From positions 1 through 60,941 of the IMG/VR virus record IMGVR_UViG_3300017759_000004: a DNA stretch of 60,941 nt; one strand, given 5' to 3'. The stretch is from a virus (lineage: Duplodnaviria; Caudoviricetes). Shown here in pieces: positions 1,158 to 17,184 of the stretch (position 1 is its first letter; the number at the start of each line of letters is the position of its first letter). The translations under genes were made by a program, and so were the position numbers. The notes below the pieces were generated by a model. It searched no databases. It had not been told where the DNA came from and was given only the letters and a program-made list of their open reading frames with translations.

Positions 1158-1179
1158 TTTATTATATATTATCAATACG

Positions 1180-3405: not shown

Positions 3406-3429
3406 AAGAGGGTACTTTGGCACAAACCA

Positions 3430-3654: not shown

Positions 3655-3694
3655 TCATACTTCAACTATATAAAATGTAAGTTATTCACTATCA

Positions 3695-3874: not shown

Positions 3875-3951
3875 AGATGCTGAAGAGGATTTAGATATGT
3901 TTGATGATTGTTCTTACGAATATGATCTAGATTACACTACTCAATACTAAA

Positions 3952-4191
3952 ATGGAATCCCCCGAAGTTAGATACGATAGAGCATTAACTCTATTTCAAG
4001 AGTCAGTATTAAAACCTGACCATAAATTGAGAGGGTGTGCATACAACCAAGATTGTTTTAATGAACTCATGGAGATCAGAGAACATGTAATGGGATATCT
4101 CAAGACCCTAAGAGAAGTCACACATCACACTAATGCTGATGAGAGTGACGAGATAGAAACAGCAAAGTTACAGGCAATTAAACCCCAGTAA
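3952..4191 (+). CDS. Hypothetical cyanophage protein
   Basis: 79 aa, ATG start, tight packing with neighbours. Confidence 0.65.
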   Translation: MESPEVRYDRALTLFQESVLKPDHKLRGCAYNQDCFNELMEIREHVMGYLKTLREVTHHTNADESDEIETAKLQAIKPQ

Positions 4192-4192
4192 G

Positions 4193-4393
4193 ATGTCATA
4201 CCTTTACCACTCATCTATGTTTGGTCTAGAAGAAAAGACCTTACTTAAAAATGCACTTATTAAATACGTTGCAAGTCTGCAGAAACAATTTTTTGCAGAT
4301 AAATCACTAGACGTACATACATACGAAACACAGATGGAGTATGTACGGTCATGTGTTGAAAAACTACATCTAAATGAACTCTATAAATTATGA
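4193..4393 (+). CDS. Hypothetical protein
   Basis: 66 aa; ATGA overlap with next gene. Confidence 0.6.
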   Translation: MSYLYHSSMFGLEEKTLLKNALIKYVASLQKQFFADKSLDVHTYETQMEYVRSCVEKLHLNELYKL

Positions 4394-5034
4394 GTGGAAC
4401 TATTGAAATGTTTTGCCCACAGTGGTATTATCATTCTACACTATCTGACGAGTATCAAGATCAAATCAAAAGATTGTTTGACAAACATGTATATCAGGAT
4501 AGTATATACACCGCATCCCCTTGGGATTGTGATTGTTTGACTACATTTCAAGCAGAGAAAAACATGGACTTACCTTGGAATGACTGGTTAGAGTGTGTTC
4601 GCTTGGATATAGATGATGCTATTGAAAAGTTAAAACCAAAGATTGATATTGAAGTTGTACCACAGGACGCATGGGCAAACAAATATAACAAAGGACATTT
4701 TCAAGAATACCATACACATGAAGTACCATTCTGTAACTTAAGCATGGTATATTTTTATGACATTCCTGACAATGAAGATGTTGGATTCCGATTCTGGTAT
4801 GATGGTCATTCTAAATATAAGAAATCGGGATTGGCACAGGCATTTGACATGCCAGTATTTCCAAGAGTGATACCGAAGGTGAAGAAGGGTGATTTTATGA
4901 TATTTCCATCACACTACGCACATTTGGTTGCACCAAATCGTAGTGATAAACCTCGTATAACATTCTCTGGCAACCTCTATGTTGTGCCAAATAACAAAGA
5001 GTCACAACGTGACCCCACACCCCTTAAACCATAG
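4390..5034 (+). CDS. 2OG-Fe(II) oxygenase superfamily protein (TIGR02466-like)
   Basis: WANKYNKGHFQEYHTH (HxH), LSMVYF, GDFMIFPSHYAHLV, RITFSGN jelly-roll motifs. Confidence 0.85.
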   Translation: MSGTIEMFCPQWYYHSTLSDEYQDQIKRLFDKHVYQDSIYTASPWDCDCLTTFQAEKNMDLPWNDWLECVRLDIDDAIEKLKPKIDIEVVPQDAWANKYNKGHFQEYHTHEVPFCNLSMVYFYDIPDNEDVGFRFWYDGHSKYKKSGLAQAFDMPVFPRVIPKVKKGDFMIFPSHYAHLVAPNRSDKPRITFSGNLYVVPNNKESQRDPTPLKP

Positions 5035-5042
5035 TATATAAT
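4983..5042 (+). promoter_or_regulatory. Palindrome-type early promoter, copy 1 (degenerate)
   Basis: TGTGCCAAATAACAAAGAGTCACA, 30 bp, TATAAT (5037); inside the 3' end of the oxygenase gene. Confidence 0.65.
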
Positions 5043-5235
5043 GATTACACCGAACATCAACAGGTCAGTGCCTATTATTGGAGTTATTAAATCCATCAAG
5101 AAGGCACTAAAAAAATCTGTTGAAGAACCATTCCTCTATACGGAAGAGGAAGTACACAAACTCAAAAAGGCAAAACGAGATTATGAAAAAATTGAACATG
5201 AAACAAGGAAATCACAGAAAGGTGGTTTCGGATAA
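5041..5235 (+). CDS. Small basic hypothetical protein
   Basis: 64 aa, IKKAL...P.LY.EEE...LK....KGGFG pattern common in cyanophages; real start may lie downstream of 5041. Confidence 0.6.
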   Translation: MITPNINRSVPIIGVIKSIKKALKKSVEEPFLYTEEEVHKLKKAKRDYEKIEHETRKSQKGGFG

Positions 5236-5335
5236 ATTTGAAATACCTGTATATGATTGTGTACAGGAGCAAGAGGATGATTGGATATCATCTGTACTCG
5301 GTTCAGAATCAGATACACTAGACACATTATTCTAA
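5198..5335 (+). CDS. Small acidic hypothetical protein
   Basis: ATG at 5198 in frame with track ORF 5120-5335; TAATG coupling to the next ORF. Confidence 0.5.
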   Translation: MKQGNHRKVVSDKFEIPVYDCVQEQEDDWISSVLGSESDTLDTLF

Positions 5336-5451
5336 TGGCAAAAAAGAAACCTAAAAAAGAACCTAGACTATACGCAAAGGATAGGATGGAATACTTTAGA
5401 GAGTTTCACAGAGTTATCGCACCAGTTATTGTACTAAACAAAGAGGATTAA
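5335..5451 (+). CDS. Small hypothetical protein (not in ORF track)
   Basis: MAKKKPKKEPRLYAKDRMEYFREFHRVIAPVIVLNKED* (38 aa) fills the gap exactly between two ORFs. Confidence 0.55.
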   Translation: MAKKKPKKEPRLYAKDRMEYFREFHRVIAPVIVLNKED

Positions 5452-5682
5452 ATGTCAGGAGATTACGAAACCCATAATGATAGGCAACCAAACATAACCT
5501 ATGCATCAAGAGAAATGGCAACGTATCACATTTATTTGAATGATAAATGTTTATTCAAAAATCTAAATGAAGAGGAGTTCGATCTCATCTGGGATAAGAT
5601 ATATTATTCTTATTGGAGAGACGAACTATCTTATGCTGTATGTTTTGATGATGTATGTATTACTGATGACCATTCTTATTAA
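5452..5682 (+). CDS. Hypothetical cyanophage protein
   Basis: 76 aa, GAGG SD upstream, YHIYLNDKCLFKNL.EEEF...W pattern. Confidence 0.7.
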   Translation: MSGDYETHNDRQPNITYASREMATYHIYLNDKCLFKNLNEEEFDLIWDKIYYSYWRDELSYAVCFDDVCITDDHSY

Positions 5683-5879
5683 TGAACACACATAGATTAA
5701 GACTCATACCCAGAGAGGATAGTAGGGAAGCACAGGAACTATTCACTTATCACATGAAACGTGATGGGTATATGTATTGTGATGAACGATTAGATAAATG
5801 GCATGTATATAATCCCAACACAGGTATAAATTTTTGGGTTGACCCAAAGAATGACCCAATGTGGGAGGTCGTATATTAA
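5682..5879 (+). CDS. Hypothetical cyanophage protein
   Basis: 65 aa, TAATG coupling, C-terminal FWV...ND..WE motif. Confidence 0.7.
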   Translation: MNTHRLRLIPREDSREAQELFTYHMKRDGYMYCDERLDKWHVYNPNTGINFWVDPKNDPMWEVVY

Positions 5880-6047
5880 ATGGATTGTTATCGCATTTCG
5901 TGGTGGGATTGTAGCATACATGGTTACCATAATAAAAAAGGAGAATGTGTAACCAATAACATTTCAACAGGAGCAGAGATAATGAAAATGGTTAGTGATG
6001 AAGGGTGGAGTTGTACTGTTGAATGTTGTACTCAGGATGGTATCTAG
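5880..6047 (+). CDS. Small Cys-rich hypothetical protein (not in ORF track)
   Basis: MDCYRISWWDCSIHGYH...WSCTVECCTQDGI* (55 aa) starts immediately after the previous stop. Confidence 0.5.
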   Translation: MDCYRISWWDCSIHGYHNKKGECVTNNISTGAEIMKMVSDEGWSCTVECCTQDGI

Positions 6048-6166
6048 GCATAAATTCTTGTTACTAAGTGACTGAAATGTGATGATATCAAAATAAATAG
6101 TGGTAGACTTAAGGAGAACAAGATGAACCCAAACTCTTGTATTATGAGTTAACTTACGAGGTAACA

Positions 6167-6334
6167 ATGCACAACTTAATGAATCACAAACAGACACCAG
6201 AATATTACAACTTCTCTTCTGAAACACCCAACAATGATCTTTGGAACGACTATTTTGATTGTATAGTTGATTGTTCAGAACAAACCCATAATCAATCCTG
6301 TCGTAGGATTTGTCGAGATATGATTCCAGATTAG
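6167..6334 (+). CDS. Small twin-CX3C protein
   Basis: ATG 6167 with GAGGT SD (track start 6137 is TTG); NDYFDCIVDC...CRRICR motif resembles small picocyanobacterial/cyanophage proteins. Confidence 0.7.
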   Translation: MHNLMNHKQTPEYYNFSSETPNNDLWNDYFDCIVDCSEQTHNQSCRRICRDMIPD

Positions 6335-6389
6335 TCCAGTTACCAAACTGTCACAACCCCTTGCAAAAGGGGTTTTTTTATTGTATAAT
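6332..6389 (+). promoter_or_regulatory. Palindrome-type early promoter, copy 2
   Basis: TAGTCCAGTTACCAAACTGTCACA; TTGCAA (6361), 17 bp, TATAAT (6384). Confidence 0.75.
6355..6379 (+). terminator. Intrinsic terminator embedded in promoter copy 2
   Basis: AACCCCTT-GCAA-AAGGGGTT stem with GNRA loop, then T run. Confidence 0.85.
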
Positions 6390-6422
6390 AATAATATTGA
6401 GACGAAAGTCATTTATTTTATT

Positions 6423-7676
6423 ATGCAGTTAAGACCCCATCAGCAAAGAGCATTTAACGCAATGCAAGAGACACCATATGGTCAGGTCATTATTCCTACA
6501 GGTGGTGGTAAAACTTATATTATGATCGCTGATGCTATGAAGCAATTTCAGTTACCAAGATCACAAACTATTGTAGTAGTCGCACCTCGTATATTACTAG
6601 CAAACCAGTTATGTGCAGAGTTCACAGAGTTTATCACAGAACAGAACTCAAAGTTTGGTCTTGATATTGCTCATGTTCACTCAGGAGAGACTCATCACTT
6701 CAGTACAACTAATCAGTTTGAGTTGAATGAATGGGTTAACAATAGCACAAAGAATATTATTATCTTTACAACATATCATTCACTACACAAAGTATGTAAT
6801 GCAGTTGATGTAGAAGTTGATACTATTTACTATGATGAAGCACATAATGGCACATCAAAGAATTTCTTTGAAGCGGTTGCTAGAATGTCATTTGGTGTAG
6901 CATATCGTAGGTTCGCATTTACAGCAACACCTAAGTTAGGTAGAGGTGCATCTAAAACTAGAGGTATGAACAATACTAAAGTATGGGGTAACACTCTATG
7001 TAATGTAAAAGCACAGGAACTTATTGATAGTGGTGCTATATTACCGCCTAAAGTTGTTCCTTTTACATGTAAGACAGAGAGAAACAAAGAGAATGCACAT
7101 GAGGTTGATGCACAGAACTTAATGGACATGTTAACATCATTCGGAGACAATGGACATAAAGTATTAGTTGCTAGTCCTAGCACTAGAGTTCTAAACAATA
7201 TGTTATCAAGAACATTCATACTTGATTGGTTATCTGATAATGGATATGATGTACTACATATTACATCAAAGTATGGTGCTATCATCAATGGAAAGAAGGT
7301 AGGTAGAGAAGAGTTCTTTGATACTCTTACTAAGTTTGGCAATGATAATAATCGTAAGGTTATTGTATTTCACTACAGTATATTATCTGAAGGTATCAAT
7401 GTCAATGGACTTACTCATACAATACTATTGAGAAATTTACCAACTATCGAAATGGCACAAACTATTGGTAGAGTTATCAGAGTTCACAAAGATGATAGAG
7501 ACGCTATCTCTAATGGTCAGTTGACTATTGGTAACTGGCAGTTCTATAAGAAATCAAGTGGACAGATCACAGTACCAACAGAGAACAAGTATGGAGATAA
7601 GATTGCTAGAAGACTAGAGTCTATTGTTGATTACATATTCAAGGAAGGATTACCCCCTATAGCATATGCATCATGA
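6423..7676 (+). CDS. Superfamily 2 (DExH, ResIII-like) helicase/ATPase
   Basis: Q motif LRPHQ, Walker A PTGGGKT, Ia VVAPR, Walker B DEAH, III FTAT, V ILSEGIN, VI QTIGRVIR. Start moved to ATG 6423 because 6381 lies within the promoter. Confidence 0.92.
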   Translation: MQLRPHQQRAFNAMQETPYGQVIIPTGGGKTYIMIADAMKQFQLPRSQTIVVVAPRILLANQLCAEFTEFITEQNSKFGLDIAHVHSGETHHFSTTNQFELNEWVNNSTKNIIIFTTYHSLHKVCNAVDVEVDTIYYDEAHNGTSKNFFEAVARMSFGVAYRRFAFTATPKLGRGASKTRGMNNTKVWGNTLCNVKAQELIDSGAILPPKVVPFTCKTERNKENAHEVDAQNLMDMLTSFGDNGHKVLVASPSTRVLNNMLSRTFILDWLSDNGYDVLHITSKYGAIINGKKVGREEFFDTLTKFGNDNNRKVIVFHYSILSEGINVNGLTHTILLRNLPTIEMAQTIGRVIRVHKDDRDAISNGQLTIGNWQFYKKSSGQITVPTENKYGDKIARRLESIVDYIFKEGLPPIAYAS

Positions 7677-8191
7677 CAGCAAAAAAAGGAACACATAGTT
7701 TTTCAAGTGGAAAACAAACTAAACATGAGAACAAACATATATCCCTAGTCCAAGAGATATATGATGAGTTTAAATGTCATGATGATAAGTGGGATAAAAG
7801 AAAAATGGTAACAGTTGCAGAGTTAATAGGAGAAGAAAATGTTAACTACGCTAGACACATGACAGGTAACTCTAATGAAATTTATAGTGATGGTGGAGTT
7901 ATATTTTATGATGGGAAAATCGTAGGATTATGTGAAGACAAATATCAACAAGATCATAGGAATGCATGTGAGAGAGCATGTAAGTATCAAGTGTATATGG
8001 ATTTAAAACCAAACCAGATATTTTTATCATGTGGTGGTGTGGGATTTGAGTTTGATACAAATAGACATGGTGGTGGTGCAACAGGCACATTATATGATAT
8101 AATGAAGTATCGAGGATATTCCATTGCTATGAATGAGACAGAACAAGAGTTCAAAACAAGATTAAGAAACTGGTTTAAAGGATTATTATGA
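7673..8191 (+). CDS. Putative PD-(D/E)xK restriction endonuclease, EcoRI/MunI-like
   Basis: SDGG...CEDKYQ...NACERACK parallels EcoRI PDGG...AEAKHQ...NAIERSHK; lies between helicase and MTase with ATGA overlaps on both sides. Confidence 0.65.
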   Translation: MTAKKGTHSFSSGKQTKHENKHISLVQEIYDEFKCHDDKWDKRKMVTVAELIGEENVNYARHMTGNSNEIYSDGGVIFYDGKIVGLCEDKYQQDHRNACERACKYQVYMDLKPNQIFLSCGGVGFEFDTNRHGGGATGTLYDIMKYRGYSIAMNETEQEFKTRLRNWFKGLL

Positions 8192-9051
8192 AACCCCTTT
8201 TCATGTGGGCAGGTGGTAAGAATAAGATGATGAAGCATTATCAACCTTACTTGCCTAGTTACGTCACTCACTATCATGAACCATTTTTCGGTGGTGGTGC
8301 TATGTTCATATATGTAATGAAAAGGTACAAACCGAAGTATGTATTGATTAATGATATTAACCCAGACATCATGAGAATATACAGAATGATAAGAGATAAT
8401 CATTCTCAGTTTATCAAACACATGGACGAATATCAAGAGAAGTATATACCACTCAGCAAGGAAGATAGAAAGAAATATTATTTCGAGGTCAGACATGGAC
8501 ACGCATTTGATTATAAAGGATGGAGTGAAGTTAAGGAAGCATCAACACTATACTTCTTAATGAAAACAGGTTTCAATGGCATATATCAGATCAATAAGAA
8601 TACTAATGGACGCTATGGTACACCTAGTGGACTTCTTAATCAAAAGGATACTGTTTACGATAAAGAGATTGTTAAGTGGTGGAGTGAAGCATTGCAAGGT
8701 GCAGAGATAACAAGTAAAGACTGGAAAGAAGTTAAAGCACCCCCATCTAAGGTGTATGCATTCCATTTTTTCGACCCCCCTTATAGGACATCTTATGCTG
8801 ATTATGGCAATGCTTTTAATGATAATGATTTAATAGAGTTGATAAAGTATGCTGATACATGTTCACAGGTATTTCTTGCTAACAGAGCAGACGATGATTT
8901 CTTTGAAAAGCAAAACCATAAACTAAACGTAGCACATTTTGACATAACATACACAGCAGGGAGAAGAAAACAAATAGATGATAAGTTTGAAGCAAAGAAG
9001 GCAAGAGAGATTCTACTATACAATGTCAAGGAAGGTGTGACAGTTGTATAA
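8188..9051 (+). CDS. D12-class (Dam-like, group alpha) N6-adenine DNA methyltransferase
   Basis: KPLFMWAGGK, EPFFGGGA (motif I), INDIN, FNGIY, FFDPPY (motif IV), terminal REILLYN. Target site not determinable. Confidence 0.93.
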   Translation: MKPLFMWAGGKNKMMKHYQPYLPSYVTHYHEPFFGGGAMFIYVMKRYKPKYVLINDINPDIMRIYRMIRDNHSQFIKHMDEYQEKYIPLSKEDRKKYYFEVRHGHAFDYKGWSEVKEASTLYFLMKTGFNGIYQINKNTNGRYGTPSGLLNQKDTVYDKEIVKWWSEALQGAEITSKDWKEVKAPPSKVYAFHFFDPPYRTSYADYGNAFNDNDLIELIKYADTCSQVFLANRADDDFFEKQNHKLNVAHFDITYTAGRRKQIDDKFEAKKAREILLYNVKEGVTVV

Positions 9052-9095
9052 GTGGCACAAGAGTGGTTGCATTGGGTTGCAATATGGTTTATATT
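9036..9095 (+). promoter_or_regulatory. Palindrome-type early promoter, copy 3
   Basis: TGTGACAGTTGTATAAGTGGCACA (contains the MTase stop); TTGCAT (9067), 17 bp, TATATT (9090). Confidence 0.75.
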
Positions 9096-9101
9096 AATAA
9101 T

Positions 9102-9194
9102 GTCGAAACAAACCAACGTAAAACTTTCAAGGTAACGGATACCCAGAGGAATACGTTTTTAAATCGAACTTAAGTAGTTGAGTTTTGTTTCGAC
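9102..9194 (+). ncRNA. Candidate structured RNA A
   Basis: Starts at the predicted TSS; GTCGAAACAAA (9102-9112) pairs perfectly with TTTGTTTCGAC (9184-9194); inner AACGTA/TACGTT and GGTA/TACC helices; no + ORF of gene size. Confidence 0.55.
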
Positions 9195-9202
9195 CCATCA
9201 CT

Positions 9203-9346
9203 GGGCATTGCCACACTCTACCGAACATTGCGTTGGAGCATCTAGTTCAACCGAGAACATGTAAGACCCATCCCTAGGCATTAAGCATACGAACTTTAAA
9301 ACACCAACTTTAATTAGATGTGGCAGTTGCAATCTTATGTAAGTCC
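9203..9346 (+). ncRNA. Candidate structured RNA B
   Basis: ATTGCCA (9207-9213)/TGGCAGT (9321-9327), CATCTAGTT (9239-9247)/AATTAGATG (9312-9320), GGGC/GTCC ends; ORF-free in an otherwise gene-dense region. Confidence 0.45.
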
Positions 9347-9368
9347 TAATCCTTTTATTATTTGAAAC

Positions 9369-9554
9369 ATGGTAAACTACAAACAACTTATTGAACTTGA
9401 TGGATACATCAATATCTGGGAAGTAATACCAGAGGATGAGCATTCACATATTTCTAACAAGATATGGGAAGCACTTGATCGGGCGGGTATAACCTTATCA
9501 CAGGATGCAGAGTTATCAGTCAGAGTATATGACAGTATAGAAAGTGGCACATAG
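9369..9554 (+). CDS. Small acidic early protein
   Basis: 61 aa; last codons are encoded by palindrome copy 4. Confidence 0.65.
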   Translation: MVNYKQLIELDGYINIWEVIPEDEHSHISNKIWEALDRAGITLSQDAELSVRVYDSIESGT

Positions 9555-9586
9555 TTGCCCCATCTACCTATCATATTCATTATAAT
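9528..9586 (+). promoter_or_regulatory. Palindrome-type early promoter, copy 4
   Basis: TATGACAGTATAGAAAGTGGCACA, 29 bp, TATAAT (9581). Confidence 0.75.
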
Positions 9587-9608
9587 AAGAATACAGCAAA
9601 ACATTATT

Positions 9609-9923
9609 ATGTACGACACATCAAAACGTATCGATGCTACTCTACTTGAAGGTTCACATGACATCAAGTTATCTCGCAGAGAGTTAGGTATCCTACTCAG
9701 ACATATGTCTATCATGTTCGCAAGTATAGACGAACCAAACAGAAACACATGGTACGAAGACGATTTTGGTAAGGATGCAATAGTATCTTTATATCGCAAA
9801 GCACTTGCTACTTATGAAGCAAACTATGATGATAAATCTGATCTAGAGAGAAAAGATTATGCCACTCAACCATTCTACTGGAATCATCAAAAACATCACA
9901 AAACAGCATTTCCTTTATTCTAA
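9609..9923 (+). CDS. Hypothetical early protein
   Basis: Start reassigned to ATG 9609 after the conserved AACATTATTATG leader. Confidence 0.7.
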   Translation: MYDTSKRIDATLLEGSHDIKLSRRELGILLRHMSIMFASIDEPNRNTWYEDDFGKDAIVSLYRKALATYEANYDDKSDLERKDYATQPFYWNHQKHHKTAFPLF

Positions 9924-10105
9924 TGAAACATAACATAGGTTTAACATACGAACAACTATCTGACATCATTTACTATCTTGATTGGAAGTTAATGGAGATC
10001 AGGGAAGCAGGATGTGATTTAGAATATCCTGATGTAGTCGATACTCTTAAACAACTAGAGGACTACAAACATCAACTAGCAGTATCTCATCAACTATACA
10101 GATAA
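9923..10105 (+). CDS. Small early protein
   Basis: 60 aa, TAATG coupling. Confidence 0.65.
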   Translation: MKHNIGLTYEQLSDIIYYLDWKLMEIREAGCDLEYPDVVDTLKQLEDYKHQLAVSHQLYR

Positions 10106-10315
10106 ATGAACTATCAAGTAACAGAGATTGAACTCTACTTATGTGAAGTTGGAGACGGAGACCCCGATTTACAGTTTACACCCGAAGAGGAGTATGTCAT
10201 GCACCAAAGGTGTCTAGGTAGATGGACAGCATATAATGAAGATGACCTAAGAAATCGAATATTTGATTTTATCGGTTATCATGCTGAACATTTAAAATAC
10301 GAGGTAAGACCATAA
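10106..10315 (+). CDS. Small early protein
   Basis: 69 aa; YQVTEIE...G.W.A..EDDL...I....G pattern common in cyanophages; loosely resembles 12406-12609. Confidence 0.7.
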   Translation: MNYQVTEIELYLCEVGDGDPDLQFTPEEEYVMHQRCLGRWTAYNEDDLRNRIFDFIGYHAEHLKYEVRP

Positions 10316-10431
10316 TGGAAGATGAATACTTTGACCCTGATCTAGGTTTAACATACACAGACAACTTTGATGAGTATGATGTGCCAGTTGAAGAAGTGTC
10401 ACATGACCAGTTGCAAGATCAGGAATCATAA
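10315..10431 (+). CDS. Very acidic micro-protein (not in ORF track)
   Basis: MEDEYFDPDLGLTYTDNFDEYDVPVEEVSHDQLQDQES*; GAGGT SD; reads through palindrome copy 5. Confidence 0.5.
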   Translation: MEDEYFDPDLGLTYTDNFDEYDVPVEEVSHDQLQDQES

Positions 10432-10440
10432 TACTATAAT
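10380..10440 (+). promoter_or_regulatory. Palindrome-type early promoter, copy 5
   Basis: TGTGCCAGTTGAAGAAGTGTCACA, 31 bp, TATAAT (10435). Confidence 0.8.
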
Positions 10441-10463
10441 AAGAACATACAACAAACATCATT

Positions 10464-10670
10464 ATGGATTTACAACTCGAAAGAGAATATGCAATCGACA
10501 ATATGGGCGATAGCATAGGTCAAGCAATCGAAAAAGCAACAGACCAAAAAAGATTAGATGATGCAATGTCATTATATCAAGAGTGGTGTGTTTTAGATAA
10601 CATTGCTGAACAAGATGACTACCAGTTCATGTTCATGAGAAACTTTACTTTACCAGAGGGGTTAAACTAA
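10464..10670 (+). CDS. Small acidic early protein
   Basis: 68 aa, first gene after the ACAAACATCATTATG leader. Confidence 0.7.
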   Translation: MDLQLEREYAIDNMGDSIGQAIEKATDQKRLDDAMSLYQEWCVLDNIAEQDDYQFMFMRNFTLPEGLN

Positions 10671-10906
10671 TGGATGTAGCATTCGCAGACTGGTTAACAC
10701 ATTGCCCAGACAAACTAAAATTTGCTCTAGAGTATGTTGATCTCAGGGCAGATATTGCTAACGTGATCGAAACTTATGAATATGAGTTCGCTTCAATCGA
10801 AGTAGAAAAGGAAGTAACTGAAGCAGTACTCAACAAACTAATCAATCAAGATTGGTCAGAACAGAATGAATACATATCAGATCTAATCGATCAGGAGATA
10901 GCATAA
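10670..10906 (+). CDS. Small very acidic early protein
   Basis: 78 aa, GAGG SD, TAATG coupling. Confidence 0.7.
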   Translation: MDVAFADWLTHCPDKLKFALEYVDLRADIANVIETYEYEFASIEVEKEVTEAVLNKLINQDWSEQNEYISDLIDQEIA

Positions 10907-11052
10907 TGTTAGAACTAACACCCGAACAACTTAGATACATGTTAAAATGTTTAGACTTTCATTATAGTGAGAACTATGATAGAAAAGAGGAGTTGATAAT
11001 GATTAACTCTAGCATTGCTAAACTTATCCAACATGAACTAAGTGACAGTTAA
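10906..11052 (+). CDS. Small early protein (not in ORF track)
   Basis: MLELTPEQLRYMLKCLDFHY...HELSDS* (48 aa); AGGAG SD; stop inside palindrome copy 6. Confidence 0.6.
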   Translation: MLELTPEQLRYMLKCLDFHYSENYDRKEELIMINSSIAKLIQHELSDS

Positions 11053-11102
11053 CAAACTGGCACATTGTTCCCCCATTCCACTCTATTATGATCTATTATA
11101 AT
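11041..11102 (+). promoter_or_regulatory. Palindrome-type early promoter, copy 6
   Basis: AGTGACAGTTAACAAACTGGCACA; TATTATAAT at 11094-11102. Confidence 0.8.
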
Positions 11103-11125
11103 AGTATAAACAAACAAACATCATT

Positions 11126-11308
11126 ATGACCAGAGAAGAGTACGACCTAATCTATTCAGCATTCAGATCATATAGAGTCTATATGACAGATGCAGACGAA
11201 GTATTATCTGAGAAAATCTTAGATGATCTATTTTATCCAGAGTTCGATAAACTAACACCTGTTGAGTTAGTTCCATCAATCTCAGTAAAACTACCAGAGG
11301 TAAACTAA
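11126..11308 (+). CDS. Small acidic early protein
   Basis: 60 aa after the conserved leader. Confidence 0.7.
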   Translation: MTREEYDLIYSAFRSYRVYMTDADEVLSEKILDDLFYPEFDKLTPVELVPSISVKLPEVN

Positions 11309-11309
11309 A

Positions 11310-11525
11310 ATGTGTAACAACGATCTTAAACAATGGAAAGTAGGAACAGAGGGAGAGACATGGGATTATGGTTACGTCCAGAATCCTAAACAGTTTATTG
11401 AAGAGGTTTTTGAAATCGCTTTCGGGGATGATGCCATCAATCGTAACTATTCTATGGGCGAAGTTTTAGATAGACTTATGGAATTTAGTGACGATGCACT
11501 ACGTTACAATGGAGAGTTAGATTAA
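11310..11525 (+). CDS. Small acidic early protein
   Basis: 71 aa, GGAGG SD; FIEEVFEIAFGDDAINR motif common in cyanophages. Confidence 0.75.
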   Translation: MCNNDLKQWKVGTEGETWDYGYVQNPKQFIEEVFEIAFGDDAINRNYSMGEVLDRLMEFSDDALRYNGELD

Positions 11526-11701
11526 TGATAAATGTACAGATTACATTCGATGAAGCATATCAGTTTATTAAACTGTATGACATACTCAGGGATATGGATA
11601 TGCCTTTAACACCAAAACAAATGAGTGTATTTGAAAAGATACAAACAGGAGACTACCTAGTCAAAACTCATCCTAGTTCACAACATTATCAAGGAGCGTA
11701 A
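11525..11701 (+). CDS. Small early protein (not in ORF track)
   Basis: MINVQITFDEAYQFIKLYDILRDMD...QGA* (58 aa), GGAG SD, TAATG coupling. Confidence 0.6.
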   Translation: MINVQITFDEAYQFIKLYDILRDMDMPLTPKQMSVFEKIQTGDYLVKTHPSSQHYQGA

Positions 11702-11702
11702 A

Positions 11703-11894
11703 ATGCAAGTAGTTATTACACCAAAAAACTTATTCTCACTTGAAACTTGTGTGGACTGTAGTAAAAACTGTAGTATCGGGTCAGGTCGATTTGTGAATAG
11801 GTATGCATATTATGGAGACGAAGTAGAGGGATGGCGGTGTGGTCATTGTGCTGAAGAACTTGATGCATTTATAGAGGAGAACATACAATGTTAA
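11703..11894 (+). CDS. Small CxxC...CxxC (putative zinc-binding) protein
   Basis: CVDC...GSGRFVNR...CGHC; AAGGAG SD. Confidence 0.7.
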   Translation: MQVVITPKNLFSLETCVDCSKNCSIGSGRFVNRYAYYGDEVEGWRCGHCAEELDAFIEENIQC

Positions 11895-12055
11895 CTGATA
11901 ATGAACTTATCTCAATAGTTCGCACTCTAGACAAATATTGTGAGCAACCAAATATTGCTGACGATATTGAAGAAGAGTTGATGAGAATATCTTTTAAGAT
12001 AGAGGATATCTTAATCAATCGAGGTGTGGAAGTCAATAGCATATGTGACAGTTAA
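11888..12055 (+). CDS. Small early protein (not in ORF track)
   Basis: MLTDNELISIVRTLDKYCEQ...NSICDS* (55 aa), GAGGAG SD; stop inside palindrome copy 7. Confidence 0.6.
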   Translation: MLTDNELISIVRTLDKYCEQPNIADDIEEELMRISFKIEDILINRGVEVNSICDS

Positions 12056-12102
12056 TTATGTGTCACACACTTCCACGCATCGGGTATAAAATCCCTTATA
12101 AT
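12044..12102 (+). promoter_or_regulatory. Palindrome-type early promoter, copy 7
   Basis: TGTGACAGTTAATTATGTGTCACA, 29 bp, TATAAT (12097). Confidence 0.8.
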
Positions 12103-12127
12103 AAGGATAACGACAACAAACATTATT

Positions 12128-12412
12128 ATGAGACCAACAGACCTAGTAACAGCAAAAAGACAAATCGATGATTTCGTTGATTATGTTGATTCATTCTATG
12201 GTCAGAATGACCCTTTATACCCTTTAGTTTATCAAGGTCAACCATTAACAAAGACTGATATTCTAACAGCAACAGTTATCTACCTCGACCAGTGCAACAA
12301 CGATGATTTCGAGTTTTGTACATGGGGTGATGGTGATTCACTTGACAGAGAGAGAGTAAGAGACATTCTACTAGACAAACTAAACTATGATCACAAAGAC
12401 GGTACATGGTAA
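12128..12412 (+). CDS. Conserved-looking cyanophage early protein
   Basis: 94 aa; FVDYV.SFYG...LYP...GDSLDRERVRDI motif. Confidence 0.75.
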   Translation: MRPTDLVTAKRQIDDFVDYVDSFYGQNDPLYPLVYQGQPLTKTDILTATVIYLDQCNNDDFEFCTWGDGDSLDRERVRDILLDKLNYDHKDGTW

Positions 12413-12609
12413 TGCTATTAGTTACTCACATAGACGTTTATGAAAAACTGGATGACGATATCCAGTTTAAGATAGACAATGGTCTCGGATGTTGGACATC
12501 AAAAGATCATGAACTATGGGATGATGTACAAAACTACATTCAACCCTATACTCTCAAAAATGTAGAGTATGAAAAAAACAGACCACACGCTCTAACGTCA
12601 TTCCTATGA
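12406..12609 (+). CDS. Small early protein
   Basis: 67 aa (or from ATG 12412); ends RPHALTSFL; ATGA overlap. Confidence 0.65.
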   Translation: MVMLLVTHIDVYEKLDDDIQFKIDNGLGCWTSKDHELWDDVQNYIQPYTLKNVEYEKNRPHALTSFL

Positions 12610-12788
12610 AAAGATCAACTTTTACAATATTCAATGAGTGGTTAAACACTTGCCCCTATGGGGATTATACAACTGGCGGTATGGACTACAACCCAAAAAC
12701 TAAAATGTGGGAAGTATCGTTTAAAGTACCGAATGTTTCAAAAGCACTCAAAGATTCTTATACACCATTTGAATATCAAAATCAATAG
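12606..12788 (+). CDS. Small early protein
   Basis: 60 aa with F.EWL..CP motif, also echoed at the N-terminus of 10670-10906. Confidence 0.65.
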   Translation: MKRSTFTIFNEWLNTCPYGDYTTGGMDYNPKTKMWEVSFKVPNVSKALKDSYTPFEYQNQ

Positions 12789-12792
12789 GCAT

Positions 12793-12851
12793 TGTGCCAG
12801 TTATTAAAGTGTCACATAGTTACCCCATCTGGGGATACAACCCACTATAAT
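12793..12851 (+). promoter_or_regulatory. Palindrome-type early promoter, copy 8
   Basis: TGTGCCAGTTATTAAAGTGTCACA, CCCCATCTGGGG hairpin, TATAAT (12846). Confidence 0.85.
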
Positions 12852-12876
12852 AATAGTATAAGCAACAAACATTATT

Positions 12877-13119
12877 ATGAACTCAACAGCAACTTACACA
12901 GAACCAACAAACAGAATCAAACAGAGAATCCTATTTGATGACAACTTACAGAATATGGCATGTTGTTGTGCTGACTGGGCAGAGTATGTTATCGAGATCG
13001 AAGAGTGGGGAATCTACAAGTTAGGCGGAGTTGATTTTGATGATTTAACTTCTGACGATATTGTTAAACTTGATGAGTTTATCAAGTCAGAAAACGGTTA
13101 CATCAGAGAGGAGGTTTAA
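12877..13119 (+). CDS. Small acidic early protein
   Basis: 80 aa after the conserved leader. Confidence 0.7.
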   Translation: MNSTATYTEPTNRIKQRILFDDNLQNMACCCADWAEYVIEIEEWGIYKLGGVDFDDLTSDDIVKLDEFIKSENGYIREEV

Positions 13120-13122
13120 GCA

Positions 13123-13302
13123 ATGTCAACTAAACCATTTAACTGGACTATTCCATCATTTAACGATACAGAGCAAAAATGGCGAGAGTATCACGAGGAA
13201 TACGAAGAGAAATTTACGACTGACATATATCAGGCACATATTGCAATCGCACAAAAATTTCCATTCATTTATAATGAGTATGGACTACCGAGGGAGGACT
13301 AG
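13123..13302 (+). CDS. Small early protein (not in ORF track)
   Basis: MSTKPFNWTIPSFNDTEQKWREYHEEY...GLPRED* (59 aa) with GGAGGT SD; preferred over track ORF 13061-13309. Confidence 0.65.
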   Translation: MSTKPFNWTIPSFNDTEQKWREYHEEYEEKFTTDIYQAHIAIAQKFPFIYNEYGLPRED

Positions 13303-13313
13303 TCAATGAAAAA

Positions 13314-13371
13314 TGTGCCACTTTATAAAGTGTCCACTTATGCCACACTTGTGGTCATAATCCTTTATAAT
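13314..13371 (+). promoter_or_regulatory. Palindrome-type early promoter, copy 9
   Basis: TGTGCCACTTTATAAAGTGTCCAC, GCCACA-CT-TGTGGT hairpin, TATAAT (13366). Confidence 0.8.
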
Positions 13372-13403
13372 ATTAGTATAAACACAGTTCAAACAACTTT
13401 ATT

Positions 13404-13568
13404 ATGAGTCATTCAGCAAACACAGAAATCCTAGAAAACTTATACGAGGAGATTCTAGACGATCTTACAGCAAAAAACATCCAACTAGGTATTATGTTAC
13501 CTATGGAACACCTCGAAGCAATAGCATCAAAGCATGCTAACCAAAAATTTGAGATGATGTGCCAATAA
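13404..13568 (+). CDS. Small early protein (not in ORF track)
   Basis: MSHSANTEILENLYEEILDDL...KFEMMCQ* (54 aa); single-gene module, stop inside palindrome copy 10. Confidence 0.7.
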   Translation: MSHSANTEILENLYEEILDDLTAKNIQLGIMLPMEHLEAIASKHANQKFEMMCQ

Positions 13569-13616
13569 ACAAAGTGGCACACAGTATCCCCATCTGGGGA
13601 TACAATCCACTATAAT
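13558..13616 (+). promoter_or_regulatory. Palindrome-type early promoter, copy 10
   Basis: TGTGCCAATAAACAAAGTGGCACA, perfect GTATCCCC-ATCT-GGGGATAC hairpin, TATAAT (13611). Confidence 0.85.
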
Positions 13617-13652
13617 AATAGTATAACAAACATTCAACAACTTTTATTCATT

Positions 13653-13862
13653 ATGTCAGGTATTTACGGAAGCAACAAAAAAGGTCTAAACATTCAAGTA
13701 ACTGATTCTCAGTACGATTTTCTTTATGACCTAGTTATGTCAGCATACGATTTGGATATTCCAGATCAAAAAGGTTGGGATACTCAAACCTTTGATAATC
13801 TAGTTGATAATGTTTGCAACGCAAAGCAAACTTATTTAACTAATGACGTAAAGGGAGTTTAA
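13653..13862 (+). CDS. Small early protein
   Basis: 69 aa after A/C-rich leader. Confidence 0.7.
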   Translation: MSGIYGSNKKGLNIQVTDSQYDFLYDLVMSAYDLDIPDQKGWDTQTFDNLVDNVCNAKQTYLTNDVKGV

Positions 13863-13866
13863 TCAA

Positions 13867-14202
13867 ATGAGAACTTGGATTTTTGGAAACTATGTAAACG
13901 ACCCGCATGGGAAGTTTATGCCATTACAGACTATTGAGTCAGAATTCTATGGAAGACATTTTTTCATAGATCTCGCATTTGAGTTTATATCAGCACCTAG
14001 TCTCAAGTCAGGTGGATATGATGAGAGTCAACTGGATTATGTTGCTAACTGGACAGACATGGAAGGTCTCAACATAGGGGAACTAATGAACATATACAGA
14101 GATCTTACATGGAAGGAAAATAATAAAAATCAAGAGAAGGCACATTCTGATATGTGCGAATATATGGAAGCAGTTGAAAATGGCGAGGTCACATATCTAT
14201 GA
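13867..14202 (+). CDS. Hypothetical early protein
   Basis: 111 aa, GGGAG SD, ATGA overlap. Confidence 0.7.
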   Translation: MRTWIFGNYVNDPHGKFMPLQTIESEFYGRHFFIDLAFEFISAPSLKSGGYDESQLDYVANWTDMEGLNIGELMNIYRDLTWKENNKNQEKAHSDMCEYMEAVENGEVTYL

Positions 14203-14414
14203 AGACTATACAACGATACAAGAAACCTGACTCTATTGGAGTCGGGGATAATGTACTCTTTAAAAATAAAGAGTATCAAGTCTTGATAAACTACATTAAA
14301 GGAGATCAGGATAGGAAGGGATTTATACCAACTGAAAACTTTACTATCCTTATTAATGATAGAGGTAAAAGAGTTTATTGTCATAACTTTAAAGAGTTGG
14401 AGATTCTAACATAA
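14199..14414 (+). CDS. Small early protein (possibly SH3-like beta fold)
   Basis: 71 aa, IGVGDNVLFKN..Y.V pattern; GAGGT SD. Confidence 0.65.
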   Translation: MKTIQRYKKPDSIGVGDNVLFKNKEYQVLINYIKGDQDRKGFIPTENFTILINDRGKRVYCHNFKELEILT

Positions 14415-14566
14415 TGGAATATAATCAAAAGTTATGGAAGTCTAAAAGATGGGGAGATTATAAAAAATATCAAGATACTTCTTACATCTATTTTTCCCAA
14501 ATCGAGCAGGGTTATTTAATCAGGCAAAAGACTAAACAACTTAAACAACACTATGAAAACTTTTAA
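14414..14566 (+). CDS. Small basic protein (not in ORF track)
   Basis: MEYNQKLWKSKRWGDYKKY...HYENF* (50 aa), TAATG coupling. Confidence 0.5.
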   Translation: MEYNQKLWKSKRWGDYKKYQDTSYIYFSQIEQGYLIRQKTKQLKQHYENF

Positions 14567-14735
14567 AGAGATCTCTTACTTGAGAAAAGAAACAAGTTTC
14601 AAAGATCATGGGTATATGTTCTTCTCTAATATAGAACAGAAACCTATGATAATGTCAACCGATATTGTGCCACTTGTTAAACTGTCACACTCGTCCCCCA
14701 TTTGTGGGTCGGACGCCACTATAATAGAGGTATAA
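14553..14735 (+). CDS. Small hypothetical protein reading through promoter copy 11
   Basis: 60 aa; the last third is encoded by the regulatory element. Confidence 0.4.
   Translation: MKTFKEISYLRKETSFKDHGYMFFSNIEQKPMIMSTDIVPLVKLSHSSPICGSDATIIEV
14666..14725 (+). promoter_or_regulatory. Palindrome-type early promoter, copy 11
   Basis: TGTGCCACTTGTTAAACTGTCACA, 30 bp, TATAAT (14720). Confidence 0.85.
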
Positions 14736-14750
14736 GCAACAAAGATTATT

Positions 14751-15197
14751 ATGACACACACAATGGTAAAAACAGACATCTACGGTTATGTAAGTCAACT
14801 ATGTGATTCTCTCGAAAGGAACTATAAAGAGTATCGTATCAGAATGCATGAAACAAACTTCACAAGTTTTAAGTCTCAAAACAGAACAGACTTATCAGAC
14901 TATGCACAGGAGCAACTTCGCAATATTGAGAATGGAACTGAAAAGTTAATGAAATTTGCATGCTACGAGGGTCGCAAGTATTTCAAGGTCGTTCAACAGG
15001 ATTTCAGAAATGGCGAGTATAGAGACGCTAGTGTGCATGCTTTCATTAATAAGGAGACAGGCGAGGTTTTCAAACCTGCAGGTTATAACAAACCAGCAAA
15101 AGGAGTTCGCTTCAATCTTGCAGACGTTACACACAGAAATTTCTTATTCCAGTCAAAAAATGTAGATTGGGCAGGTGGTTATCTATACAGGAGATAA
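14751..15197 (+). CDS. Conserved T4-like phage hypothetical protein
   Basis: GRKYFKV...SVHAFI...TGEVFKPA....PAKGVRFNL...W.GGYLY, a widespread phage family of unknown function. Confidence 0.85.
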   Translation: MTHTMVKTDIYGYVSQLCDSLERNYKEYRIRMHETNFTSFKSQNRTDLSDYAQEQLRNIENGTEKLMKFACYEGRKYFKVVQQDFRNGEYRDASVHAFINKETGEVFKPAGYNKPAKGVRFNLADVTHRNFLFQSKNVDWAGGYLYRR

Positions 15198-15233
15198 CCC
15201 CATTATTCTAACACTTATCCGCACTACACGCAA

Positions 15234-15455
15234 ATGAACCTAAATCAATCCGCACCTATACCGCATTTAAGTTTTAACAACTATGATGAGTTAACAGAAC
15301 TGTATCAAGCAGTCGAGTATATTCCAGAGGATCTAGAAGCAGAAATGGAACAATATGGAGCAATGACAGACGAGCAAAAAGCACTTATTGACATTATACA
15401 CAGATTAAAGACTATACATGATAACTATATAAACCAGTTACTTCACTTGCAATGA
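15234..15455 (+). CDS. Small early protein
   Basis: 73 aa, ATGA overlap with next. Confidence 0.6.
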   Translation: MNLNQSAPIPHLSFNNYDELTELYQAVEYIPEDLEAEMEQYGAMTDEQKALIDIIHRLKTIHDNYINQLLHLQ

Positions 15456-15664
15456 GTTGGAACTTAATACAATGGTCAGAACAAACATCTAACATTATGG
15501 CAACAATGACCTATCAAGATTTACTGGAAGAGTTACAACAATTAAACCCTAATCAGTTAAAGAAAAATGTTGCTATCTATGATGAACATTTAGATGCTAA
15601 GTGTTTAGCACATAACAAACTTATTTTCTTTGATAACAACGAGTTTCCCTATATTAAGATATGA
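15452..15664 (+). CDS. Small early protein
   Basis: MTYQDLLEELQQL...QL...VAIYD motif; real start may be an internal ATG. Confidence 0.7.
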   Translation: MSWNLIQWSEQTSNIMATMTYQDLLEELQQLNPNQLKKNVAIYDEHLDAKCLAHNKLIFFDNNEFPYIKI

Positions 15665-15927
15665 AAGTAACATTTAATAGGGGAGACTATTATCAATCAA
15701 AAAATGATATAGGTTACATAGATTTCATATGTAATGATTATATTACTCTATGTGTTAGAGAGATACAAAGAGATAACGAACAGGCAAAAGGAAGCAGACT
15801 AAATTATATTCAAGTTAAGGTATTAGTATACAAAAATGAGTATGAAGCAATGACTAAATTAGAACAACCAAACAGATTTGCAAATAAGAGTAATAAGAAC
15901 TCTTTAACTTTGGATGATTGGAGTTAA
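15661..15927 (+). CDS. Hypothetical cyanophage protein
   Basis: G.IDFIC..YITLCVRE...VKVLVY motif; ATGA overlap. Confidence 0.7.
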   Translation: MKVTFNRGDYYQSKNDIGYIDFICNDYITLCVREIQRDNEQAKGSRLNYIQVKVLVYKNEYEAMTKLEQPNRFANKSNKNSLTLDDWS

Positions 15928-15933
15928 TTTAGC

Positions 15934-16074
15934 ATGCGGAAGTTCGATCACTATGTAATAAATAAGGACTTCACTATGGTATGGATAGTTGTTAAAGAAC
16001 TAACCTATTTTACTTGGGATTATGTTAGAAAAGATGGAAAATGGCATCTAGCGGATAATAACGAAAATATGTAA
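15934..16074 (+). CDS. Small hypothetical protein (not in ORF track)
   Basis: MRKFDHYVINKDFTMVW...NNENM* (46 aa), GGAG SD. Confidence 0.45.
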   Translation: MRKFDHYVINKDFTMVWIVVKELTYFTWDYVRKDGKWHLADNNENM

Positions 16075-16178
16075 ATAAATCTTATTAAGTGTTATATAGA
16101 TGGATTAATCTCTCAGGTTAATGTACTCTTAGCACGCAACTTACCGAGTGTCAAGTATATCAGAATATCGGAACATTC

Positions 16179-16208
16179 TTGACAATGTATAAAGAATTAT
16201 GGTACAAT
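16179..16208 (+). promoter_or_regulatory. sigma70-type promoter
   Basis: TTGACA (16179), 18 bp, TACAAT (16203) with TG extension. Confidence 0.65.
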
Positions 16209-16243
16209 ATGACTGTAAGGAATGAAAAGGTTAACTGTAACTT

Positions 16244-16462
16244 ATGACCCCTAAGTATAAAGAACTGTATGACAAGTATCCCCACTTAAGTAATAAACAG
16301 CAAATAGACTTATGCCAGTATTTGTTAGACACAGAGCAACACTTCTTCAGTACTGAAATAATGCAGAGGTGTATTTACTTCTTAGAGGAGGGATTATGCT
16401 ACTATGTGCCAGTTGAAGAAGTGGCACACACAGTGACCACAGAGGGGAAAGAAGTACTATAA
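16244..16462 (+). CDS. Small hypothetical protein
   Basis: 72 aa, Q.LLDT...C..F.EEGLCYYV motif; C-terminus reads through palindrome copy 12. Confidence 0.7.
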   Translation: MTPKYKELYDKYPHLSNKQQIDLCQYLLDTEQHFFSTEIMQRCIYFLEEGLCYYVPVEEVAHTVTTEGKEVL

Positions 16463-16463
16463 T
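16405..16463 (+). promoter_or_regulatory. Palindrome-type early promoter, copy 12
   Basis: TGTGCCAGTTGAAGAAGTGGCACA, 29 bp, TATAAT (16458). Confidence 0.85.
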
Positions 16464-16494
16464 AATAGTATAAACAAACAAAGGACATTCTAAA

Positions 16495-16731
16495 ATGAAC
16501 TTAACACCAGTATTTGCAAACGGTACAGAAGTAGAGACAGACACAGCAAGAGTATTTTTTTCCTACCGTACCCCAGTTGCTGCTTATATCTTTGGCAGAG
16601 GGTTCGTAAAAACTGAGCAGTTCTTCAGCGTTACCACTTCACGCCACATAAACAAATGGTTAAAAGATGGTCATTCTGATTTCCCAGAGTTCGAGACAAT
16701 TTCACAGAAGGAAATCGAAGCACTTGCCTAG
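16495..16731 (+). CDS. Conserved phage early protein
   Basis: N.TEV....VFFSY.TPVAA......S.TTSRHINKWL, a widespread phage family; AAGGA SD. Confidence 0.8.
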   Translation: MNLTPVFANGTEVETDTARVFFSYRTPVAAYIFGRGFVKTEQFFSVTTSRHINKWLKDGHSDFPEFETISQKEIEALA

Positions 16732-16760
16732 TTGACAAACATCTCACACGGTGCTATAAT
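16732..16760 (+). promoter_or_regulatory. Consensus sigma70 promoter
   Basis: TTGACA (16732), 17 bp, TATAAT (16755) with TG extension. Confidence 0.88.
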
Positions 16761-16787
16761 AAGAGGGAACAACAACCCTCTTTTTTT
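16761..16787 (+). terminator. Intrinsic terminator closing the early region
   Basis: AAGAGGG (16761-16767)/CCCTCTT (16776-16782), T run to 16787. Confidence 0.8.
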
Positions 16788-16789
16788 AT

Positions 16790-16925
16790 GGTCTAATCTC
16801 AGTCTCGCCAGTCTCAAGCACAGTCGCCCAGATCGCAGTCGTGGCGCGGGTTCTCGCGGGTCGTCGCGCCCCTAAATATAAAACGCTTAAGTCCCTAACC
16901 TACAAAGGTACCCGAAAGCGACCTA
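16790..16925. other. GC-rich non-coding island (candidate origin or structured RNA)
   Basis: CAGTC repeats at 16800, 16809, 16821, 16836; GGCGCG (16843)/CGCGCC (16865) inverted repeat; visibly far more GC-rich than the rest of the window. Confidence 0.5.
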
Positions 16926-16941
16926 CATATTATTCAGTATT

Positions 16942-17181: not shown

Positions 17182-17184
17182 CGT

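Follow-up and report, generated by a model that had tools for sequence, protein, structure and literature searches.

Twelve copies of a 24-nt imperfect palindrome stand amongst the small genes of a T4-like cyanomyovirus known from IMG/VR record IMGVR_UViG_3300017759_000004, the whole 60,941 nt of which (60.9 kb, completeness estimate 35%; hereafter the window) are closest, amongst named phages, to the T4-like cyanomyoviruses P-RSM4 and S-TIM4. We consider it likely that the palindrome is an upstream promoter site which compaction has overlapped with gene ends, and that breakpoints of gene shuffling fall at the edges of some modules, a module being the palindrome with the -10 box that follows it. 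The original prediction, made from the sequence of the window, had proposed that genes are captured or trimmed by recombination at the left edge of the element in the manner of integron attC sites, with plain genome compaction as the alternative; it is the latter that is favoured, both by promoters that have no palindrome and by the ends of homologous proteins.

In the scheme that we propose, the palindrome would form the upstream half of a promoter type serving small-gene arrays in T4-like cyanomyoviruses, a two-armed site for a putative dimeric DNA-binding protein at about -65 to -42, followed by a -10 TATAAT and usually without a -35 hexamer. With the early region packed tightly, the preceding gene would reach up to, into or through this site. 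The arms would permit one stop only, the TGA of TG-TGA-CA when position 5 is A, and the centre would be free, such that stops would accumulate immediately 5' of the palindrome, within it at index 2 and in the centre, immediately 3' of it and at the TAA of the -10 box, and the arriving frame would shape the free positions. Gene order would be shuffled between phages with some breakpoints at module edges, for which general homologous or microhomology recombination between repeated modules may suffice, as in the promoter-early stem-loops (PeSLs) of T4-type phages, with no need of a dedicated site-specific system. Promoter activity, protein binding and the recombination route are what we infer here from sequence.

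Geometry and conservation of the palindrome module

The twelve copies lie within positions 4983–16428, 11.5 kb of small open reading frames (ORFs), all of them upstream of plus-strand genes and with the consensus TGTGMCAGTT-N4-AAGTGKCACA. Searching the window for TGTGNCA-N10-TGNCACA with up to two mismatches gave 12 matches against 4.3 expected, a number reached by none of 100 shuffles, and with up to one mismatch the pattern gave 10 matches per strand against 1 for a reversed control pattern. The twelve elements differ from these 12 pattern matches in that the matches at 7436 and 58584, with two mismatches each, look like chance and were removed, whilst the degenerate copies at 6332 and 13314 were taken from repeat families and not from the pattern search.

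A -10 box follows 28–32 nt past the palindrome in all twelve window copies and is a perfect TATAAT in eleven, the next ATG lying 22–36 nt beyond the box in 10 of the 12 modules. Only two modules have a -35-like hexamer at 16–18 nt (hexamers at 6361 and 10411), and only one module (6332) has a canonical terminator, there as a separate hairpin. The palindrome also occurs in Syn9, P-RSM4, S-RIM2 and P-SSM4 and in many IMG/VR contigs, a scan of IMG/VR returning at least 191 loci and 274 strand-instances. A box matching TATAAT in at least five of six positions was found at offsets 20–39 in 128 of the 274 listed strand-instances, 96 of these 128 boxes being at offsets 28–30.

In order to describe conservation and stop positions we used 187 non-identical modules, comprising the listed IMG/VR loci and those of three phages, and the counts from this survey given here and below hold among the matches listed. 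The arms are nearly invariant across the 187. Their variable positions 5 (A/C) and 20 (G/T) do not covary, being complementary in 115 of 187 modules, which matches the base frequencies (p = 0.57), and at index 7 and index 16 a G mostly faces another G, with which it cannot pair; the IMG/VR search pattern biases this last pair, and the unbiased copies in the window and P-RSM4 agree on G-G. Fixed spacing, lack of covariation and the G-G opposition together point to an upstream protein site in a promoter rather than a folded strand. The same observations make it very unlikely that the palindrome serves the 3' end of the upstream message as an RNA hairpin, whether terminator, processing site or stabiliser, with stops placed there for that reason. 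The 24-mers do fold, with a mean energy of -8.1 kcal/mol where shuffles give -2.5, and the stem-loops of PeSLs act as terminators in the passages of PMC2839356 that describe them, but such a hairpin would be expected neither to vary in an arm without covariation nor to conserve a non-pairing G-G, there is no T-run after the palindrome, the sole canonical terminator in the 12 modules is a hairpin of its own, and a fixed distance to the next -10 box is not something that an RNA 3' hairpin needs.

Stop codons of the upstream genes

Six stops that the original prediction had placed in or at the edge of the palindrome were verified by script, all on the plus strand. The D12-class adenine methyltransferase (MTase; PF02086; 8188–9051, ending GVTVV) has its TAA (9049–9051) at index 13 of the palindrome at 9036–9059, the module (9036–9095) having TATATT at 9090–9095 and heading a conserved non-coding stretch. 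ORF 9369–9554 (ending YDSIESGT) passes through the palindrome at 9528–9551 to a TAG immediately 3' of it (9552–9554; TATAAT 9581–9586; module 9528–9608). Two ORFs end in a TAA at index 9, namely 10906–11052 (ending SDS; TAA 11050–11052; palindrome 11041–11064, TATAAT 11097–11102, module 11041–11125) and 11888–12055 (ending CDS; TAA 12053–12055; palindrome 12044–12067, TATAAT 12097–12102, module 12044–12127), and ORF 13404–13568 (ending MCQ) ends in a TAA at index 8 (13566–13568; palindrome 13558–13581, TATAAT 13611–13616, module 13558–13652). The sixth, the TAG of ORF 6167–6334, is formed by the first three bases of the degenerate left arm of module 6332–6422, which lies upstream of the helicase gene, has only its right arm (AACTGTCACA) intact and contains an intrinsic terminator at 6355–6374 before its TATAAT at 6384–6389.

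Four further ORFs read through the palindrome, all in the frame T-GTG-CCA. These are 4390–5034, a 2-oxoglutarate-Fe(II) oxygenase (Pfam PF13759 over residues 94–194), in the end of which lies palindrome 4983–5006 (TATAAT 5037–5042, module 4983–5042); 10315–10431 (palindrome 10380–10403, TATAAT 10435–10440, module 10380–10463); 14553–14735 (palindrome 14666–14689, TATAAT 14720–14725, module 14666–14750); and 16244–16462, which passes through palindrome 16405–16428 and stops at the TAA within the -10 box (TATAAT 16458–16463, module 16405–16494). The peptide VPVEEV is common to ORFs 10315 and 16244, as predicted. ORFs 10315 and 14553 are without support as genes, 14553 having no match, and neither 11888 nor 14553 has a homolog in the phage collection. 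The arms of module 4983 are conserved in four relatives (L003, L004/L010, L006 and L007), the -10 box being missing in L003, L004/L010 and L007. In the remaining two modules the upstream ORF stops short of the palindrome, by 7 nt in the case of ORF 12606–12788 (palindrome 12793–12816, TATAAT 12846–12851, module 12793–12876) and by 14 nt in that of ORF 13123–13302 (degenerate palindrome 13314–13337, TATAAT 13366–13371, module 13314–13403). The claim that most upstream genes end in the element thus holds for six of twelve, with four reading through and two stopping before it.

The same arrangement is seen in annotated genomes. In P-RSM4 the annotated upstream stop is held by or abuts the palindrome in seven of nine modules, three using the TGA of TG-TGA-CA, and the two perfect palindromes of Syn9 (48558 and 52996) both hold annotated stops, those of gp72 and gp88. 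Two deposited small coding sequences either start inside the palindrome or cross both it and the promoter, Syn9 gp89 (L204 12998–13120) and PRSM4_081 of P-RSM4 (L011 20178–20279), and are probably not genes.

Amongst the 187 surveyed modules, 172 are preceded by an open frame of 40 codons or more, and their stops peak at -3 (18 modules), index 2 (17), index 8–13 (29) and index 55 (17), the last being the TAA of the -10 box. These peaks follow from stops being possible only at or before -3, at index 2 if position 5 is A, and from index 8 onwards. Clustering by the upstream 150 nt left 143 independent upstream genes in public viral contigs, for which the stop is upstream in 57, left-abutting in 14, inside in 38, right-abutting in 3 and beyond a read-through palindrome in 31; the stop therefore lies in or against the palindrome in 55 of 143. 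A stop inside the palindrome is found in the coding frame for 38 of 72 entering ORFs; in the two remaining frames the figure is 49 of 144 (p = 0.012). Position 5 is A in 16 of 24 frame-2 entrants, compared with 17 of 48 ORFs entering in another frame (p = 0.023) and 16 of 71 that do not enter. Within one orthologous cluster the loop stop shifts between index 9 and 12 and is retained in all six members. On these modest statistics, the free positions of the palindrome appear to respond to the incoming reading frame.

Promoters without a palindrome hold stops in the same way. The window has four promoters of the type TTGACA-N16-18-TATAAT with no palindrome; at 1129–1157 (TTGACA-N17-TAAAAT, plus strand) ORF 112–1146 stops in the spacer, at 3378–3405 (TTGACA-N16-TATAAT, plus strand) ORF 3022–3381 ends at the TGA within T-TGA-CA, and at 16732–16760 (TTGACA-N17-TATAAT, plus strand) the TAG of ORF 16495–16731 directly adjoins the -35 hexamer. 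The window, P-RSM4 and Syn9 together have ten TTGACA-type matches preceded by an ORF of 40 codons or more; nine are palindrome-free, the exception being P-RSM4 12035, which lies inside palindrome module 12005. Four of the ten upstream stops are the TGA in TTGACA, two are in the spacer and two lie 3–4 nt before the hexamer. Since palindrome-free promoters hold stops likewise, gene ends appear to overlap whichever element of the following promoter they meet first. In the case of 1129 the final codons of the gene contain the -35 hexamer, and the protein ends GYAWLTTFL where that of relatives without the promoter and cassette ends GYAFITTFVS.

ORF 1180–2166, which has its own TTGACA promoter, is missing from three relatives that are 97–99.8% identical over the aligned flanks, and is replaced by a different ORF in a fourth (window 1127–2165; L001 5747–5786; L004 4923–5864). 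The left boundary of this indel lies in the last codons of ORF 112–1146 and the right boundary at a TATAAATA box plus hairpin. At 3378–3450 and 16732–16790, perfect TTGACA/TATAAT promoters stand directly 5' of AAGAGGG...CCCTCTT and a T-run, and a promoter running straight into such a terminator-like hairpin could be the source of a tiny RNA or an attenuator.

Alignment with homologs gives no indication that genes have been trimmed at the left edge, as had been predicted, since homologous proteins from genes without the element have their C-terminus at the same residue or only a few away. ORF 13404 (54 aa) has homologs of 54 and 53 aa in P-RSM1 and MbCM1, which have no palindrome there, and the last residues alone are changed (FEMMCQ vs FEELAQ). 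The similarity of the oxygenase 4390 to its P-RSM4 paralogs stops at residue 199, the start of the palindrome, past which there are four more residues in the P-RSM4 paralog and 15 in the window protein. The reverse is seen for ORF 5041, the P-RSM4 homolog of which (PRSM4_060) is 3 aa longer and ends at the TGA in its own palindrome. Where relatives do have the element, the residues encoded by its arm are kept, in S-RIM2 for the MTase, in P-SSM4 for 16244, in P-RSM4 for 9369 and in P-RSM1 and MbCM1 for 6167. Thus the S-RIM2 MTase (61% identity) also ends in the palindrome (RVTVA) though a helicase comes next there; in P-SSM4 the 16244 homolog terminates (YYVPVK) with a TAA from the palindrome centre, a stop that the window copy has lost and beyond which it continues to the -10 box; PRSM4_078 ends in its own palindrome with YDS, which it has in common with 9369; and the P-RSM1 and MbCM1 homologs of 6167 have the same end with the same half-palindrome and terminator downstream. 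No case of a truncated domain was found among these comparisons of homolog ends. To judge by these alignments, the gene–palindrome overlaps are old and were inherited with the upstream gene.

ORF 9369 is without a 13-residue acidic stretch of PRSM4_078 (L011 19600–19685), owing to a 39-nt deletion between two TATGA repeats, in sequence terms a microhomology deletion, which brings the palindrome nearer to the gene body.

For annotation, the ends of cyanophage early genes would be set by promoter elements, be it the palindrome, the TGA in TTGACA or the TAA in TATAAT; the overlap would leave short C-terminal tails like VPVEEV as by-products, and ORFs annotated across the element are doubtful. The palindrome would also illustrate clearly how a single short site can answer to two constraints, putative protein binding and a translation stop.

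Breakpoints, recombinases and gene neighbourhood

Gene order in the window is scrambled with respect to P-RSM4 among module-bounded units, and module edges seem, from these alignments, to be some of the points at which genes are rearranged, as with PeSLs. Module 9036 and its downstream segment match P-RSM4 module 12005 with a different upstream gene, and module 12044 shares an identical 10-nt centre and 23 of 29 spacer positions with P-RSM4 19072, both flanking genes being unrelated. Spacer identity was considered as proof that the latter two are orthologous and set aside, as the 23/29 compares with a mean of 15.6 (standard deviation 3.2) and another pair ties with it; the centre is the stronger argument. 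Other breakpoints are at plain gene–gene junctions with no module (10670/10906, 11310/11525 and P-RSM4 089/090), and the P-RSM4 homologs 090 and 091 of the genes flanking module 11041 overlap, the module being absent there. Two further modules, 12793 and 13558, form direct repeats at a distance of 765 nt (12793–12867 and 13558–13632) with 85% identity over 75 nt and 25 of 29 spacer positions in common, far closer than other module pairs, which suggests a recent duplication or conversion; the pair is a natural substrate for deletion or circle formation.

Gene 16244 is absent from two relatives (window 16170–16404; L333 1129–1250; L334 1031–1141) that show about 86% identity downstream. In its place these carry a CA/GA-rich filler of some 45 nt, after which homology is restored at 16405, exactly where the palindrome begins.

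Contigs from two DNA and two RNA public runs were matched to 4000–17500. Many joints that could be read as element-bounded deletions or circles connected the right-hand end of a palindrome with the -10 box of a different module, with sides of only 21–27 nt; these were rejected, as they mostly span 16–35 unrelated letters and are to be attributed to cross-matching modules of other phages. No sound module-to-module deletion or circle was found in the contigs of these four runs over 4000–17500.

Four points weigh against overlap by compaction as a full account. In three comparisons (module 9036 with P-RSM4 12005, module 12044 with P-RSM4 19072, and the 16244 indel in two relatives) the start of homology coincides with the left edge of the palindrome or is a few bases away from it, which compaction alone does not predict, though by our weighing selection keeping the promoter intact would. 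The match between 12044 and 19072 amid unrelated flanks means that recombination is needed on both sides. The last 3–7 residues differ where homologs are without the element, as in ORF 10906 (SDS) and PRSM4_090 (QEIYKND). Lastly, the statistics for frame tuning are modest, the ORFs used for it having been called by length alone and the search pattern for the loci having fixed most arm positions.

Recombination at the left edge, as originally predicted, has three homology breakpoints to its credit, whilst the dedicated attC-like system that was to bring it about is rejected. According to that reading the palindrome would fold as a single strand like an integron attC site and a dedicated recombinase would cut at its left edge and capture cassettes. 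What it would explain is that many genes have the palindrome at their 3' end and stop within it in one frame or another, and that some breakpoints occur at the left edge. Sites of the attC type are roughly 57–141 bp and are recognised as a folded strand, with structure conserved and sequence free. The element here is 24 nt long, its arms are conserved in sequence and not in pairing, with a conserved G-G clash, and it stands at a fixed distance from a -10 box, present after every copy, such that the cassettes carry their own promoter. The module goes either with the upstream gene (the MTase, as in S-RIM2) or with the downstream segment (9036 and 12005). Neither tyrosine recombinases (PF00589; control positive in 14 of 14 genomes) nor serine recombinases (PF00239; control positive in 12 of 14 genomes) were found in the complete, element-bearing genomes of P-RSM4 and Syn9, and, in agreement with the original prediction, none of 59 scanned window ORFs, from a genome about 35% complete, matches a recombinase family. 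Capture by an attC-like route is not supported by these data, and the reading is close to refuted.

A RecA-family gene is present in both P-RSM4 and Syn9. If shuffling of the PeSL type, by the general recombination of the phage, were the main cause, the modules would serve as portable homology, cassettes would be joined at the palindrome and the stop would be whatever the module offers at the joint. The scrambled order of module-bounded units, the three left-edge breakpoints, the 12793/13558 repeats and the RecA-family recombinase in relatives all accord with this, as does the precedent of PeSLs in RB49 and phi1, where mini-circles were obtained by inverse PCR in the portions of PMC2839356 and PMC4122927 concerned. 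As the main cause it is nonetheless unlikely: several breakpoints are at module-free gene–gene junctions, palindrome-free promoters show the same stop overlap, and the run contigs gave no well-supported module-to-module deletion, the joint sides measuring 21–27 nt. Moreover, palindrome junctions travel with the upstream gene across 50–61% protein identity, and most junctions would thus be old rather than freshly made. A contribution from PeSL-like exchange, on the other hand, does fit the sequence data, as an attC-like system does not. A new recombination system is not revealed; overlap by compaction, with shuffling at some module edges, remains the account we favour, and the element marks where PeSL-like shuffling in marine phages could be sought.

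Positions 3400–17500 hold some 50 small co-oriented ORFs around the MTase and the helicase (PF04851), after which come baseplate genes. Module 9036 heads the non-coding stretch 9093–9197, which has 96.7% identity to P-RSM4 and S-TIM4, in both of which a different gene precedes it, and 84% to MbCM1; the adjoining genes are only 65–80% alike. The stretch folds as a closed multi-stem structure (z = -2.46) with no Rfam match and is a candidate phage small RNA. A second piece, 9204–9268, matches P-HM2. Rfam and tRNA scans across the window gave no matches. Amid the baseplate genes, 23213–42973 is one open frame of about 6,580 codons, comparable to a giant ‘structural protein’ annotated in P-RSM4.

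Comparison with known promoter elements, attC sites and PeSLs

A novel regulatory element was reportedly described in 2016 by Doron and colleagues for the early genes of Syn9 and other T4-like cyanophages, together with what are said to be host-like promoters for the middle genes; the palindrome may be this element. The virus group is the same, as is the region, that of the small genes near the helicase, and the window palindrome occurs in Syn9, the phage of that study. In other papers citing that work or dealing with early promoters we found no description of its element. The palindrome module may be a further example of a promoter type that has reportedly been published.

In the host, CGRE1 is the site of the GntR-family regulator PMM1637 (PlmA) upstream of the Prochlorococcus yfr2 small-RNA genes; PMM1637 binds it and raises expression from it, and the motif lies far upstream of the start site, according to the sections of PMC6191309 that treat it. 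The MED4 yfr2 promoter oligonucleotide given there (Table S1, primer 68) contains AACTGGCACA followed directly by TGTGACAATT, which are the right and left 10-nt arms, respectively, of the phage element. In CGRE1, however, the arms are reversed in order and abut, whereas the phage element has the left arm, 4 nt and the right arm, and with this permuted order and spacing one rigid dimer could not read both layouts. Scanning one genome per prokaryote species for the palindrome gave at least 121 loci, mostly chance matches in unrelated phyla. Nine of the loci listed have a -10-like box at 27–31 nt, and a few of the nine resemble phage DNA in bins. Rfam, applied to 11 listed loci (cyanobacterial ones and three phage-like ones in bins), gave no Yfr2 and one tRNA only. 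Because the CGRE1 arms stand in another order, the scan neither supports nor tests PlmA as a candidate reader of the palindrome.

With integron attC sites the palindrome has in common that it is an imperfect palindrome at gene 3' ends, in which the gene may terminate; it differs in length, in its mode of conservation, in the linked promoter and in the lack of an integrase. The likeness to PeSLs is closer. These combine -35 and -10 elements with a stem-loop that terminates transcription, as the accounts of them in PMC2839356 and PMC4122927 have it, and like the modules here they are, in those accounts, repeated composite regulatory cassettes, all pointing the same way, that separate small non-essential genes in hyperplastic regions, stand close to sites where relatives differ by insertion, deletion or replacement, and involve no dedicated recombinase. 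Cyanophage S-PM2 has few PeSLs, in the passage of PMC4503421 that covers it. The modules differ from PeSLs in that 10 of the 12 in the window are without a -35-like hexamer, and in that the palindrome does not look like a terminator, having no T-run, and is conserved in sequence and not in pairing. We tentatively raise the possibility, doubtful as it is, that the modules are the cyanophage counterpart of PeSLs, portable, recombining, circle-forming and gene-moving, with their free positions selected to close the incoming frame. If this were true, one and the same 24 nt would dock a protein, close a gene and serve as a joint for recombination.

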